Shown here: positions 38,001 to 41,113 of the stretch, piece after piece | How positions within the stretch are numbered: position 1 is the first letter of the stretch | Layout: each line of letters opens with the position of its first letter | Assembly (NCBI GenBank): GCA_038210275.1 | Contig: JBBQWV010000019.1 | Coordinates: 5,965 to 69,964 of the forward strand | DNA: 64,000 bases | Source of the DNA: Candidatus Kapaibacterium sp. | Lineage (GTDB): Bacteria; Bacteroidota; Ignavibacteria; Palsa-1295 | Direction: 5' to 3' | Position numbers and translations under genes: made by a program | The notes under the pieces: model-generated | What the model was told of the DNA's origin: nothing | Database searches by the model: none | Seen by the model: only the letters and a program-made list of their open reading frames with translations

Positions 38001-38282
38001 ATGCCAGCACCACAGATCATTCGTGATTTAGTTGATAAATTCGACCGCAACTTCGAGACCTATAAAAAGGCAACGAACGAAACGCAAGTGCGCCGTGAAT
38101 TCATTGATACATTCTTTTCCGAACTCGGATGGGATATGGACAACACCAAAACGAAAGCAATACCGCAAAGCCGGACGCAACTTGAGCGGCAGATCGCGCA
38201 TGCGGATAGTGAAATTGATCGGCTGGTTTATGAGTTGTATGGGTTGAGTGAGGAGGAAGTTTCTATAATTGAAAGGAAATAG
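38001..38282 (+). pseudogene. internally deleted type IIG/Eco57I-like restriction-modification gene (N-terminus fused in frame to C-terminal tail)
   Basis: MPAPQII..NETQVRREFIDTFFSELGWDMDN (HSDR_N-like start) joined to PQSRTQLERQIAHADSEIDRLVYELYGLSEEE (typical C-terminal tail); no methylase or TRD region; 93 aa. Confidence 0.8.
38161..38282 (+). repeat. R-M 3' tail direct repeat, copy 1
   Basis: Contains the invariant GATCGGCTGGTTTATGAGTTGTA at 38217-38239. Confidence 0.92.
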
Positions 38283-38285
38283 ACC

Positions 38286-39320
38286 ATGCCACAAAAAAAT
38301 AAAGTAAATACCAAGAATGCACAACCGATAGAAGATGTAGTTGTTGTTAAGTCTAACAATCCTCTAATCTTCATAAGTCATGACACGAGAGATGCTGAAC
38401 TCGCCGAAGAGTTTAGTAACCTTCTCAAGAGTGCTAGTGCGGGTGCCCTAAAATCATTTGTTTCGTCAGACAAAAAGGGGACTCGGGGAATGGAGTATGG
38501 TGTAGAATGGTATCCAGCCATTATGGATAAAATCGATGAAGCAACGGAAGTGGTCTGTTTATTAACCCAGCGAAGTGTCGAACGCCCTTGGATTCTTTAC
38601 GAAGCGGGGGTGGCAAAAGGCAAATTAGGGAAGAAAGTAATTGGTATCGCAATGGGGATTCAAAGTAAAGTTGCATTCATTGGACCATTCGCTCAATTTC
38701 AAAACAATGATGGTTCTGTCCCTGCCATTTCAAAGTTGGTTTTGGATCTTGTAAAAAAAGTACCAGGACTTGACCCTGATCAACAACTTGTCGAACAACT
38801 TGTTCAATCTTTCCATAATAAAGCGAGTGAAATTTTAACAAAAAATCAAGAAACTAATGATGAGATTAATACGAATGAAAATACTGTAGTCAAATTATTT
38901 GAAGAAGTTAAAATTATGTTCGAGAGGTTACCAGCCACTATTGTGCATAGGATTGATCCTAATTCGAAACGGAATCGGAAATTACATCCGATGATGTTTG
39001 AAGAGCTTATGCATATGAGTATGAATTTTGAAGAACCTCAGATTGGTTTTCTAATGATGATAAGCTTTATCAAAGACGATTTTCCATGGCTCTACGAAAT
39101 TGCCCTTGAAACGTACAGGGGAGTTAGAGAAAACAAAACTTTAAATGAAAAGAGAAAATTAGTTTCGTCACTTGAAAGGGCTTTAGATATGTTAGAACAT
39201 CCGGCATTGAGAGATTACTACGGTAAATCTAAAGAAATGTATATGATAAGCCATGAAATAGGTCATTTCTTCCATCGCTTTTTCGACAGATTTTTGCTTG
39301 ATGAGAAAAACAAGAAATGA
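38286..39320 (+). CDS. TIR-domain protein with helical C-terminal domain (putative defence)
   Basis: LIFISHDTRD, CLLTQRSVERPWILYEAG with the conserved Glu. Confidence 0.88.
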   Translation: MPQKNKVNTKNAQPIEDVVVVKSNNPLIFISHDTRDAELAEEFSNLLKSASAGALKSFVSSDKKGTRGMEYGVEWYPAIMDKIDEATEVVCLLTQRSVERPWILYEAGVAKGKLGKKVIGIAMGIQSKVAFIGPFAQFQNNDGSVPAISKLVLDLVKKVPGLDPDQQLVEQLVQSFHNKASEILTKNQETNDEINTNENTVVKLFEEVKIMFERLPATIVHRIDPNSKRNRKLHPMMFEELMHMSMNFEEPQIGFLMMISFIKDDFPWLYEIALETYRGVRENKTLNEKRKLVSSLERALDMLEHPALRDYYGKSKEMYMISHEIGHFFHRFFDRFLLDEKNKK

Positions 39321-39503
39321 GAAGATGTTTCCTCCGTCAACCGTATGCTGACGTTCAACAAAGAACTACCCTCAGCCAAAACCCCTCAGAGCCGAACGCA
39401 GCTTGAGCGGCAGATCGCGCATACCGATATCGAAATAGATCGGCTGGTTTATGAGTTGTACGGGTTGACTGAGGAGGAGATTAAGGTGGTGGAGGAGAAA
39501 TGA
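39320..39503 (+). repeat. R-M 3' tail direct repeat, copy 2 (includes an intact 52-aa ORF at 39345-39503)
   Basis: MLTFNKELPSAKTPQSRTQLERQIAHTDIEIDRLVYELYGLTEEEIKVVEEK; invariant core at 39438-39460. Confidence 0.92.
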
Positions 39504-39562
39504 GCCGCAAAATTAGATGGACAAAATATGGAATTTGTATGGCTAATTTATGGTTGTACTAA

Positions 39563-40015
39563 ATGCCAAACGTAATTAACACATTCTCTTTACGAAAAGA
39601 CATGCCAGCAACTGCCACAGTAAACCGACTCTTCAGTACTGTTCCTAAAGACCGATTTAAGCTTTTGCAGACGAATAACAAGCCCGATGCAAAACGCATT
39701 GCAAATTCATTCTTAAATTTTGGTAATGAGGAGGTCTCTGCGGCTACGGGAATACCATTAAAATCAGTCCGATTCGACGATCGAATGCCGGATGCCCTTA
39801 GAGAACGGGCATTAGAGTGGGCTACTGCTATTAATTTGGTAGGCGAATTCTTTAAGGACGAGAATCAAACGATTCTCTGGTTCCAGACACCGAATCCGTT
39901 GCTTGGCAGTATCTCCCCAAAGGAAATGATAAAGCGAGGACGGTTTCGTAAACTGCTTCAATTTATCCAAACCGCACTTACAGAAAATGTAAACACGGCA
40001 GGTGGCAAAGCGTAG
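39563..40015 (+). CDS. Xre/MbcA/ParS-like antitoxin
   Basis: C-terminal WFQTPNPLLGSISPKEMI pattern; overlaps the RES gene start. Confidence 0.82.
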   Translation: MPNVINTFSLRKDMPATATVNRLFSTVPKDRFKLLQTNNKPDAKRIANSFLNFGNEEVSAATGIPLKSVRFDDRMPDALRERALEWATAINLVGEFFKDENQTILWFQTPNPLLGSISPKEMIKRGRFRKLLQFIQTALTENVNTAGGKA

Positions 40016-40949
40016 TAATGGCTTTCAGCGCAGGTTCGGACGAAAACCACCGCCACTCCGGCGGAAGACACCACCTCCAAAATTTCCAAGTTCGGTCATT
40101 CTTGAATCAGGTACATTAGCGCAGCTTAGTGCAAATAAAGATTATTCAAAAGAATTAAGCCGTTACCATTGGAATTTATACTCCGAGTTCTCCCACCAAC
40201 GTGCAGTAGTTCAGGATCAACTTTTCGAATCATTGAGCAGAGGCGCAATTGGAAATTATCAATTTGATCATTGGCAGCGGGCTGTAAAATACGCTTACAG
40301 TTACACTCCTCTTTCTACTAAAGGCAGTCTAAAATTTGGCGGTGGCCGCTTTAATATCGGTGATATTGACCCAGACCGTTTTCCGATGTTTCCGGCACTC
40401 TATCTTGCTGAAGATAAAGAAACAGCGTTGCAGGAGACACTCGGACAGCAAGAGAAGTCAGGTAAGCTTTCTGCGATGGAAGTTGCGTTGACGAATCCAC
40501 AGTCGATTTCGGTTGTATCGGTTTCGGGAAGCCTTGAAACAATTCTTGATCTGACGAAAGAAGGCTCACTAACAGAATTTCTTGGAGTGATCTCAAAGTT
40601 TACCGTATCTCAGCAACTCCGGCAGGAAGCGAGGCGATTAAATCAGTTGGTTCCAAATGCTGTTCGTACCGAGGAGATATTAAAGCTAAGTCTTATGGAT
40701 CCGTTATGGCGTGCCTTCCCTCAAATCGTCGATGTTCCTGCAAACTCACAGATTTTCGGGCAGTTGGTTCGCTCTGCTCAATTATGTGGTGTTCTCTATG
40801 TTTCAAAATTCAATGGAGCAAAGTGTCTTGCGATATTCCCAAAAAATTTTAATAGTACATCGTCCTTCATTCAACTTGATGATCTTGCCCCAGATCCAAA
40901 AATAGTGAATCGTGTAGATTCAAATAACTGGAATGAGATTGAAATATAA
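40002..40949 (+). CDS. RES-domain toxin (putative NAD+ phosphorylase)
   Basis: GGRFN, ALYLAEDKETALQE and GVLYVS..CLAIFP supply the R, E and S residues. Confidence 0.88.
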   Translation: MAKRSNGFQRRFGRKPPPLRRKTPPPKFPSSVILESGTLAQLSANKDYSKELSRYHWNLYSEFSHQRAVVQDQLFESLSRGAIGNYQFDHWQRAVKYAYSYTPLSTKGSLKFGGGRFNIGDIDPDRFPMFPALYLAEDKETALQETLGQQEKSGKLSAMEVALTNPQSISVVSVSGSLETILDLTKEGSLTEFLGVISKFTVSQQLRQEARRLNQLVPNAVRTEEILKLSLMDPLWRAFPQIVDVPANSQIFGQLVRSAQLCGVLYVSKFNGAKCLAIFPKNFNSTSSFIQLDDLAPDPKIVNRVDSNNWNEIEI

Positions 40950-40951
40950 AG

Positions 40952-41113
40952 AATCGGATGCGAACTTAAACAAAGAACTACCCTCAGCCAAAACACCTCA
41001 GAGCCGAACGCAGCTTGAGCGGCAGACCAGAGCATACCGATAGCGAGATTGATCGGCTGGTTTATGAGTTGTATGGCTTGAATGAGGAGGAAATAAAGAT
41101 CGTGGAGAATTAA
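40952..41113 (+). repeat. R-M 3' tail direct repeat, copy 3 (frameshifted)
   Basis: NKELPSAKTPQSRTQLERQ, a one-base insertion near 41027, then DSEIDRLVYELYGLNEEEIKIVEN stop; invariant core at 41051-41073. Confidence 0.92.

Follow-up and report, generated by a model that had tools for sequence, protein, structure and literature searches.

In the 64,000-nt stretch of DNA analysed here (the window), a TIR gene and an Xre/RES pair are bracketed by three direct repeats of the final 40-55 codons of a type IIG restriction-modification (RM) gene. With restrained confidence, we consider it probable that this locus is a decayed member of a widespread class of cassette arrays that are anchored at type IIG genes, lack a recombinase and are reshuffled by homologous recombination at the gene tails. 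This reading rests on what was observed: a recurrent architecture with variable cargo, tails that are mosaic and array-specific, and no recombinase or structured site in the arrays examined. From these patterns we infer a crossover mechanism, circular intermediates and translational coupling. No description of such a tail-bracketed layout was found in the literature searched. The features of the locus are as follows.

38001-38282, + strand: type IIG RM remnant, 93 aa, with N-terminal ~50 and C-terminal ~40 residues fused in frame
~38142/38163-38282, + strand: tail copy 1, the 3' part of the 93-aa ORF
38286-39320, + strand: cargo 1, 344-aa TIR-domain protein, ATG 3 nt past the tail 1 stop codon
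39336-39503, + strand: tail copy 2 (orphan), intact 52-codon ORF at 39345-39503, 93.4 bits
39563-40015, + strand: cargo 2a, 150-aa putative Xre/ParS/MbcA-type antitoxin (PF09722)
40002-40949, + strand: cargo 2b, 315-aa RES-domain toxin (PF08808)
40952-41113, + strand: tail copy 3 (orphan), +1 frameshift near 41028, distal end of the array
41433-42527: recA, downstream of tail 3

The initial annotation had described a three-copy direct repeat with an invariant 23-mer, and both were recovered by repeat search, MAFFT alignment and tail profile. The repeat search of the window returned a 95-nt family of three copies. Relative to the reference copy (38163-38257), the copy at 39384-39478 is 88% identical, and the copy at 40997-41091 is 63% identical without gaps, a figure that is low because of a 1-nt indel. 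The 23-mer GATCGGCTGGTTTATGAGTTGTA is invariant across all three tails in the MAFFT alignment. Gapped identity was 106/143 columns for copies 1 and 2 and 107/144 for copies 1 and 3; copies 2 and 3 agreed in 69/79 columns of the 5' part and 72/90 of the 3' part, with 97% identity over 61 nt between 39354-39414 and 40966-41026. Mosaicism among these three tails was not significant (p 0.22). The tail profile matched 38142-38279 (82.7 bits) and 39360-39500 (93.4 bits); copy 3 was matched in two frames, 40972-41031 (profile positions 1-20) and 41021-41110 (positions 17-46), which indicates the +1 frameshift near 41028. As had been proposed, each copy closes at a stop codon (38280-38282, 39501-39503 and 41111-41113), and the order tail, TIR, tail, Xre/RES, tail, recA is borne out by domain matches and coordinates. 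The statement that copies 2 and 3 start about 3 bp after the preceding cargo stop holds for copy 3 (~3-6 nt after the RES stop); it needs a small correction for copy 2, whose detectable similarity to copy 3 begins ~20 nt past the TIR stop (~39339). Homology to a same-genus genome (G004) restarts at 41127, 14 nt past the tail 3 stop codon.

The assignment of the repeat to the C-terminus of type IIG enzymes was also upheld, as PADLOC type IIG models align to the tails at their last ~35-50 positions. All three copies match the conserved tail that follows the target-recognition domain (TRD) in these enzymes (...EIDxLVYxLYGLTEEEIxIVE). Type IIG genes encode an HSDR_N nuclease joined to an Eco57I/N6 methyltransferase and a TaqI_C TRD; a conserved helical tail of ~55 residues closes the protein. 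In the 93-aa ORF (ATG at 38001), the first ~50 residues match PDLC03604 positions 9-57 of 1011 (E 6.4e-15), and the C-terminal part matches PDLC03609 positions 1014-1063 of 1066 (E 1.1e-7). A 1056-aa type IIG gene in a same-genus genome (L022) is 81% identical in DNA to 38000-38144 at its start and 86% identical to 38163-38257 at its end. The ORF is a type IIG gene minus ~2.9 kb, deleted in frame. Of the HSDR_N-like nuclease region just the first ~50 residues are present, and they score below the cut-off (PF04313, 19.8 bits; cut-off 25.1), and neither an N6-adenine methyltransferase domain (PF07669/PF02384) nor TaqI_C was found by Pfam and PADLOC. The full-length relative in L022 has both (Eco57I 7e-51, TaqI_C 1.4e-15). 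The ORF was rejected as an active type IIG enzyme because these domains are missing, and it is treated as a remnant.

The TIR gene was identified with PF13676 (E 4.6e-7, 30.8 bits; cut-off 28), PF08937 ThsB_TIR (25.9 bits) and the PADLOC TIR-TM model (5e-10). A Thoeris system was considered and rejected, as no ThsA-like (SIR2/Macro-SLOG) gene was present among the scanned neighbours. Metagenomic relatives of the TIR gene (39-85% identity) are solitary and occur in varied contexts, with a tail nearby in 0/80, which suggests that genes enter the arrays from outside. Tail copy 2 matches PDLC03609 positions 1031-1063 of 1066, and its ORF starts at the Met of a conserved '(D)(Q/R)ML' motif. The putative antitoxin scores below the cut-off for PF09722 (E 0.001, 19.4 bits; cut-off 24.5); its gene overlaps the RES gene by 14 nt. 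The RES domain is well supported (PF08808, E 3e-12, 47.3 bits; cut-off 23.2). A RES homologue with 54% identity was found in another genus (L039), with a tail before it and a tail remnant after it, and its partner is 67% identical to the putative antitoxin.

Tandem tails recur widely. Tails were detected in 27/35 genomes of the family to which the window belongs, and among the 81 matches listed 18 end open frames of at least 450 aa, i.e., full-length type IIG genes. Twelve of these 18 genes have 1-5 same-strand orphan tails within 5 kb, with small genes between them; the other 6/18 have a single tail. Arrays were also found in other families of the same class. Of 80 tail loci spread over more than ten phyla, archaea (Methanothrix) among them, 27 had at least two same-strand tails. 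Where at least 1.5 kb of downstream sequence was available, orphan tails followed 16/41 full-length tails. Loci L021-L058 were chosen for having tails, and counts on them are biased. The genomes and loci checked agree with the expectation of variable cargo between tandem tails in relatives; the cargo there is of a defence or toxin-antitoxin kind. A general linkage to recA was not supported: the content upstream of recA differs in same-genus genomes, and the arrays of relatives sit elsewhere, normally directly behind a full-length type IIG gene. The recA adjacency of the window array is incidental. A second array is present in the host genome on another contig (C1; the window lies on C19).

Most of the genomes are metagenome-assembled, and repeats in such data invite chimeric joins. 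An assembler could have chained unrelated pieces at the repeats; the host genome is a 35-contig assembly, and Logan unitigs break exactly at the 31-mers common to tails 2 and 3. We regard this artefact as extremely improbable. Unitigs 37453-39413, 39399-41025 and 40997-41156 cover the region end to end without a single difference and at similar depth (12.8, 14.4 and 16.1), although the run concerned (X1) is possibly the source of the assembly and hence not independent. The three tails are distinct (80-88% identity to one another) and lie in unique flanks, and dozens of independent assemblies have this architecture too, some of them in just 1-10 contigs (G047, G023 and G048).

The cargo of the arrays is variable and looks defensive in character. 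Among 73 cargo proteins scanned with Pfam, 41 had a match and 32 (~44%) had none; TIR, RES/Xre, HEPN, PIN, PemK, AlbA_2 (Schlafen/AlbA_2 type), PD-(D/E)XK, DUF559, DUF3800, RhuM or Bro-N domains were found in 26/73, a raw count uncorrected for background. PADLOC added AbiGi (2e-46) and PDC-S22 (9e-133). A congeneric genome carries the same type IIG lineage with different cargo at another locus.

The tail is the sole 3' stretch conserved among type IIG alleles, and it is located after the TRD (TaqI_C stops at residue 986 of the 1056-residue L022 protein). The commonest 5' limit of orphan tails, ~50-61 residues from the C-terminus, coincides with the end of TaqI_C and with the start of inter-allele homology. 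The tail is conserved as protein: synonymous codons vary at every conserved residue, no fixed DNA core was found in the tails, and RNAalifold returned 0 consensus pairs for 42 tails. The best-match 5' limit of orphans spans positions 13-198 of 220 (17/50 at 160-171, 9 longer and 24 shorter), and 19 of 62 orphan matches are 3'-only and 7 are 5'-only. These properties bear on an integron-like explanation, in which a recombinase encoded elsewhere, or the type IIG enzyme itself, would use the tail as an attachment site. The arrays are compact, many cargo genes are tightly bounded at start and stop codons, the junction position recurs, and the layout is found across phyla, all of which would suit such a system. 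We consider it very unlikely, given the variable codons and 5' limits and the lack of a conserved core or secondary structure. No recombinase was seen in or next to arrays on the ORF maps examined; no serine recombinase and just two tyrosine recombinases (PF00589) were found in the host genome (98.7% complete), the latter on contigs C5 and C26. The initial annotation had named no recombinase other than RecA in the window, and its comparison to an integron array lacking integrase and attC sites holds as an analogy; its suggestion of an attachment site found no support. The other half of that suggestion, a homology module, fared better: mosaicism, within-array similarity and a propagated marker repeat agree with it, while the mechanism remains conjectural.

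Signs of recombination were found at several levels. The closest type IIG tail, among 23 candidates, was that of the same array for 16/26 orphans, and the nearest tail of any kind lay in the same array for 40/56 tails. Tails are mosaic, with breakpoints in mid-tail: the 5' and 3' halves of tails 2 and 3 in L022 are 28% and 91% identical (p 4e-16), and those of the L021 tails 99% and 80% (p 6e-5). In one array, a 108-nt palindromic insert occupies the same position in four orphan tails with unrelated cargo between them; its copies are 97-100% identical within that array and 70-83% identical to copies elsewhere. Between two congeneric arrays, the N-terminal two thirds of the type IIG gene match at 87-88% and the run of tail 2, cargo 2 and tail 3 at 91.5%; the TRD and cargo 1 differ.

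These observations are consistent with RecA-type homologous recombination as builder and reshuffler of the array. Incoming DNA carrying a tail and a neighbouring gene could undergo a single crossover inside the resident tail, which would duplicate the tail, so that each insertion would leave one more copy behind the type IIG gene. Later tail-tail exchanges could delete, convert or swap cassettes, or replace the TRD, tail and first cargo as a block. In the window, the type IIG body would have been lost later by in-frame deletion, so that of the anchor gene just the N-terminus::tail mini-ORF remains, together with the TIR gene, the Xre/RES pair and two orphan tails. No deletion, circle or other product of such recombination was seen in the assembled contigs, which break at the repeats. 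Homologous recombination alone leaves the origin of the first tail-cargo-tail unit unaccounted for.

Orphan tails might instead be passive scars, i.e., leftover 3' ends of type IIG alleles that gave way to a new allele and its downstream gene, with no role in mobility or expression, kept alike by gene conversion alone. The body of the type IIG gene is often lost or disrupted: besides the N-terminus::tail fusions of the window, L035 and L041, ~24 more with varied junctions were found among public proteins, and split genes in L030, L031 and L057. The variable orphan lengths, the matches limited to one end, and the replacement of a TRD, tail and cargo block between L029 and L030 would also be expected of scars. 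We judge this explanation unlikely, since the four insert-marked tails flank different cargo in one array and most orphans resemble the active tail of their own array. In addition, inverted and possibly self-promoted cargo is still bracketed by a 230-nt duplication (5' part 99% identical), and the junction position is kept across cargo homologues just 45-67% identical. The dN/dS values (0.10-0.23) point the same way: 0.15 where orphans are compared with the type IIG tail of their array, 0.23 for pairs of orphans and 0.11 for pairs of functional tails. By this measure orphan tails do not behave as free-running pseudogenes. Translation need not be the reason for the low ratio, which divergence before the tails were orphaned, or gene conversion by active tails, could also produce.

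Insertion of RM genes with long target duplication was reportedly described by Nobusato and colleagues in 2000. By such a process, break repair or replication would duplicate ~150-230 bp of the type IIG 3' end around an insert; homology on the donor would be unneeded and recombination between copies secondary. Inserts in tail arrays are flanked by direct repeats above 30 bp (95-230 nt) without a mobility gene, cargo such as the TIR family comes from outside the arrays, and the junctions are fairly fixed, at the stop codon and ~55 codons upstream. In the available text of Furuta et al. (2010; PMC2853133), such insertions are reported from several phyla as RM-linked, without mobility genes, with direct repeats that far exceed the target duplications of transposons and by a mechanism not known; TRD substitution in type IIG genes is also reported there. 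The published cases in that text have the RM system as the insert, any sequence as the target, and single events, whereas in tail arrays small defence genes are inserted, time and again, at the 3' end of an RM gene, and events stack. Fresh copies should also be uniformly alike, yet many pairs have one unrelated and one near-identical half. We therefore hold this origin to be distinctly unlikely. No near-identical pair of empty and filled sites was found, though single-tail type IIG genes do exist.

Accessory genes within RM loci have a precedent in prrC, which lies inside the type IC EcoprrI locus (EcoSal Plus review, PMC12707154). There, as in tail arrays, a toxin-like or abortive-infection gene sits in or beside an RM operon and may act as second-line defence on RM inhibition; the available text of the review describes neither a repeated gene tail nor arrays.

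Tail arrays resemble integrons in being compact and mostly same-strand, with little intergenic DNA, a repeated separator element, highly variable cargo and anchorage at one gene whose promoter may drive them. They differ in having neither intI nor an attC-like hairpin, in a repeat that is coding sequence conserved as protein, and in that some cargo is inverted. In polymorphic toxin loci (Rhs, CdiA), orphan C-terminal modules and their immunity genes lie behind a main gene; the repeats there are thought to permit unit-swapping homologous recombination, and there is no dedicated recombinase. Tail arrays likewise have an intact main gene followed by an array, with a short conserved piece of the main gene repeated at each variable unit. 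In Rhs/CdiA loci that piece precedes the variable C-terminal domain of the same protein, whereas in tail arrays it is the extreme 3' end beyond the TRD, and what varies are unrelated, free-standing defence or toxin-antitoxin genes.

If the reading of recombination at tails is true, the arrays would be a homology-driven counterpart to integrons and polymorphic-toxin orphan arrays. They would explain how small defence and toxin-antitoxin genes build up beside RM genes without mobile-element machinery, and would account for the numerous 'hypothetical' ORFs of 50-60 codons, and the remnants of RM genes, in genome annotations. A mining rule for new defence genes would follow, 'genes between tandem type IIG tails', and changes in RM specificity (TRD swaps) would be linked to changes in the accompanying defence cargo.

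A broader reading, which we put forward tentatively, is that bacterial and archaeal type IIG genes anchor a recombinase-free cassette platform, in which the tail would be both a portable RecA-type homology arm and a translated mini-ORF or coupler feeding ribosomes onward. The array would then work like an integron, with ordinary homologous recombination replacing IntI/attC, and the cargo without annotation (44%) would be a rich source of new defence genes. Features that may indicate a coupler are the Met start of the tail itself, GGAGG-like 'VEG' codons and overlapping stop and start codons. A same-strand ORF follows 56/75 tails, and 30 of these 56 start -11 to +10 nt from the tail stop codon. 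As many cargo genes start at or overlap this stop behind the GGAGG-like codon string, the tail may also couple translation. Coupling cannot be general, since some cargo (in L021, L029 and L038) is inverted with room for its own promoter. Promoter-like sites numbered 5, against 9.9 expected. The codons at 'VE' were GTG in 39/52 tails and GAG in 46/52.

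The initial annotation had placed three tail copies around the cargo of the window, a tail being the last ~50 codons of a type IIG restriction-modification (RM) gene, an orphan tail a copy without the gene body, and cargo the small genes between or just behind tails. This arrangement was borne out by a repeat search, an alignment, a tail profile and PADLOC. The plus-strand block between the DUF1648 gene and recA spans 3.1 kb:

37371-37883, minus strand: DUF1648 gene, left neighbor of the array block
38001-38282, plus strand: type IIG remnant ORF, N-terminus joined to a tail
38286-39320, plus strand: TIR-domain gene (PF13676, 30.8 bits, cut-off 28)
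39345-39503, plus strand: 52-codon ORF, tail copy 2
39563-40015, plus strand: Xre_MbcA_ParS_C-like gene (19.4 bits, a weak match below the cut-off)
40002-40949, plus strand: RES gene (E 3e-12), overlapping the Xre-like gene
ending at 41113, plus strand: final stretch of ~160 nt, tail copy 3
41433-42527: recA, right neighbor of the array block

In the repeat search the direct copies were located at 38163-38257, 39384-39478 (88%) and 40997-41091; between copies 2 and 3 the similarity reaches 45 nt further 5′, with 97% identity over 61 nt there. The alignment revealed an invariant 23-mer common to all three copies, each of which terminates at a stop codon, and the tail profile detected a +1 frameshift in copy 3. 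PADLOC type IIG models match the copies over the models' last 35-50 positions, and the ORF at 38001-38282 additionally aligns to positions 9-57 of a type IIG model with 1011 positions. Since this ORF combines an N-terminal model match with a tail, it is a type IIG gene shrunk in frame, its N-terminus fused to its own tail. A full 1056-aa type IIG gene is present in the same-genus genome G004 (locus L022); its DNA identity to the window ORF is 81% at the start and 86% at the end. In a blastx comparison tail 2 seemed to reach into the 3′ end of the TIR ORF; this was dismissed as spurious, because tail-free TIR relatives have the same C-terminus. Four public DNA runs from two studies, and no RNA run, were listed for the window. 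The Logan contigs of the DNA runs break at the tail repeats, and all listed joints lie within recA and come from other organisms. In these contigs no joint was seen in 37300-41200 and no product of recombination was observed directly; contigs broken at the repeats would hide circles and deletions. It is hardly credible that the array is an artefact of assembly.

The layout is widespread. A profile built from 12 tails was searched against all 35 genomes of the family; tails were present in 27 of them, with 81 matches listed. Eighteen of the listed matches terminate open frames of at least 450 aa, i.e., full-length or contig-cut type IIG genes, and 12 of these 18 frames are followed within 5 kb by one to five same-strand orphan tails. 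Type IIG genes ending in the tail combine HSDR_N, Eco57I/N6_Mtase and TaqI_C domains. The longest run, six tails in a row, was found on G048:C10. The window's own genome holds a second, intact array (G000:C1:282303-287159; L021 4304-9160), in which a type IIG gene encoding 1231 aa is followed by a Bro-N gene in inverted orientation and one orphan tail. Arrays were also found in further families of the class; a different class of the phylum has at least one (G472). Among the best 80 tail loci of a species-level genome collection, at least two same-strand tails occur at 27, and orphans lie behind 16 of the 41 full-length tails having at least 1.5 kb downstream; these fractions are rough, as the sample was picked by tail similarity. 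The 80 loci come from Acidobacteriota, Chloroflexota, Planctomycetota, Verrucomicrobiota, Nitrospirota, Desulfobacterota-type MAGs, Methanothrix and other archaea. For plasmids, tblastn of tail 2 returned six records, each with a single place only.

A Methanothrix harundinacea record (L183, 3790-6697) carries three direct tails and two opposite-strand tail matches; it is the sole locus seen here with inverted tail copies, which could permit inversion. Several array-heading type IIG genes are split into two ORFs by a frameshift or stop (L030 1426-4865, L031 2627-5642, L057 1101-4146). Such splits suggest frequent loss of enzyme activity from arrays that themselves survive.

The tail comprises the 55-70 residues behind the TaqI_C target-recognition domain (TRD), starting near a conserved LVDQML motif and finishing ...EIDxLVYxLYGLTEEEIxIVEG. 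Its conservation is at the protein level; synonymous codons at invariant residues vary freely among arrays. No consensus secondary structure was detected across 42 tails, no Rfam family in 37300-41500, and no excess of promoter or terminator patterns. No recombinase was found near the arrays examined, and the own genome has only two tyrosine recombinases, both on other contigs, and no serine recombinase. An attC-like role of the tails is unlikely because of the protein-level conservation and the lack of a shared structure, a nearby recombinase and an Rfam match; the attachment function proposed in the initial annotation thus finds no footing in the free codon variation, the 42 tails without a common fold or the remote recombinases. 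A site-specific system served by an unrecognised recombinase, against which the same missing structure, Rfam family and neighboring recombinase speak, is very unlikely.

On balance, we lean towards arrays built and reshuffled by homologous recombination at the tails. A tail-bearing fragment or circle would integrate via one crossover in a resident tail, giving tail-cargo-tail with both tails hybrid; subsequent tail-tail exchanges would delete, convert and swap units, and deletion would trim sequence not kept similar to an active tail. Orphans are nearest to their own array's type IIG tail in 16 of 26 cases, out of 23 candidates, and for 40 of 56 tails the nearest relative lies within the same array. 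The 5′ limit of orphans falls most often (17 of 50; 9 longer, 24 shorter) at 50-61 residues before the C-terminus, where the TRD ends and type IIG alleles begin to be homologous to one another. That the tails are passive scars left by serial type IIG replacement is unlikely. Own-array similarity also led us to abandon the notion that an array's tails are in every case unrelated "fossils".

Many tail pairs are mosaic. Between tails 2 and 3 of L022, identity rises from 28% in the 5′ half to 91% in the 3′ half; in the 230-nt repeat of L021 it falls, from 99% in the 5′ part to 80% in the 3′ part. Tails from different arrays give a background of 51% (5′ half) and 69% (3′ half). Several more pairs are significantly uneven; for the three window tails mosaicism was not significant (p 0.22). 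Tails as simple duplicates in every case were rejected on account of the mosaic halves. For RM genes, Furuta et al. (2010; PMC2853133) described "insertion with long target duplication"; as an explanation of the arrays, such insertion through break repair is somewhat less probable again than passive scars.

Individual loci show further signs of recombination. On G048:C10 four successive orphan tails have a palindromic repeat of 108 nt inserted at the same position (L029 7621-7729 plus three further copies). Identity among these four copies is 97-100%, and to copies elsewhere 70-83%; the genes between them are unrelated. One copy landed in an orphan tail and then multiplied fourfold inside that array, so this version of the tail spread there. 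The repeat is a near-perfect palindrome (DNA fold -32.7 kcal/mol, z-score -9) from a family dispersed in the genomes of one genus, with 38 matches in G041, and resembles a miniature transposable element. Two congeneric arrays agree in the N-terminal two thirds of their type IIG genes (87-88%) and again from tail 2 through cargo 2 to tail 3 (91.5%). Their TRD, tail 1 (76%) and cargo 1 differ, a block replacement with conserved sequence on either side. Even between diverged cargo homologues the next tail begins at nearly the same position, as in the Xre/RES pair (54-67% identity) and an uncharacterised two-gene cassette (45-54% identity).

Among 73 cargo genes scanned, 41 had a Pfam match and 32 had none. 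Domains typical of defense, abortive infection or toxin-antitoxin systems were found in 26 of the 73 (a raw count): TIR (three), RES with its Xre partner, HEPN (AbiU2 twice, RiboL-PSP), PIN (four), PemK, Schlafen/AlbA_2 (two), PDDEXK_3 (two), DUF559 (three), DUF3800 (three), RhuM and Bro-N (two). PADLOC added AbiGi and PDC-S22. One insert is an IS transposase, and a few cargo genes look unrelated to defense: one for a secreted protein ending in a sorting tail of type IX secretion (T9SS) and one for a SnoaL-like protein. The same type IIG lineage carries different cargo: TIR and Xre/RES in the window, and AbiU2, an uncharacterised gene pair and RiboL-PSP in L022. No tail was found near any of 80 metagenomic relatives of the window TIR (39-85% identity, 557 kb in total; L059-L138), and their neighbors were varied. 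The window TIR family is thus normally solitary, and arrays therefore take up genes from outside. An obligate partnership of the TIR gene with type IIG enzymes was ruled out by the same tail-free relatives and varied neighbors. The family (344 aa) is a widespread solitary gene in very different neighborhoods, which suggests a self-contained, often transferred defense gene. A pattern scan of the genome contig collection retrieved no relative of the RES protein.

Over 26 codons, dN/dS was 0.15 between orphans and their own type IIG tail (26 pairs) and 0.23 among orphans that share an array (24 pairs); it was 0.10 among the four repeat-marked tails and 0.11 for functional tails. Many orphans are intact 50-60-codon ORFs beginning at a conserved Met, and public protein sets contain many ORFs of this kind. 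The downstream ORF starts within -11 to +10 nt of the tail stop codon in 30 of 56 cases, overlapping the stop in 19, and tails mostly close with the GGAGG-like codons GTG GAG GGN. A role of the orphan tail as a translated coupler would fit; repeated gene conversion from active tails fits the orphan data equally well. Some cargo is inverted (L021, L029, L038), so coupling is not universal.

Rhs and CdiA loci have orphan arrays, and the array logic here is similar; it also resembles that of integrons and of long-target-duplication insertions. The articles covered by our literature search contained no description of defense-gene arrays punctuated by a type IIG 3′ tail; the supplementary figures of PMC2853133 might include related cases. 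The tail-punctuated defense arrays represent a variation on known array logics with a wide taxonomic reach.

For the window locus, we infer that a type IIG gene of L022 type once stood upstream of recA together with the TIR and Xre/RES cassettes, and that an in-frame deletion later removed the body of the gene. Similar ORFs joining an N-terminus to a tail, each with a different junction, occur in L035, L041 and ~24 public proteins; only in-frame cases are detectable by this approach, so their recurrence is no evidence of selection for in-frame deletion. The recA-linked locus envisaged by the initial annotation is not retained: the same-genus relatives G004 and G002 differ at that site, other arrays lie at unrelated loci, and the adjacency of recA is incidental. 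Synteny of G004 with the window stops at 37527 and resumes at 41127, 14 nt past tail 3. In G004 this gap (L028 3858-5369; G004:C21) is occupied by a truncated DUF1648 gene and by the C-terminal part (503 aa) of another RM fusion enzyme, type IIG or type I-like (PDLC03597 positions 1153-1542 of 1646, E 7e-117); G002 has neither array nor DUF1648 there. RM genes appear to land repeatedly at this site upstream of recA.

Between tail 3 and recA, 41150-41250 is a multi-copy element of ~100 nt. Copies matching at 78-95% occur on no fewer than five further contigs of the own genome, and related genomes have many; the element matches no Rfam family. Metagenome-run depth jumps about tenfold in the bin 41123-41323. 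On the other side of the array, a gene for a 706-aa protein (33505-35625, minus strand) contains ~12 copies of a 120-138-nt periodic repeat, probably encoding repeated propeller blades. It shares its 3′ end with the neighboring 565-aa gene (35654-37351; 72% over 83 nt), and this shared end looks, by eye, like a T9SS C-terminal sorting domain.
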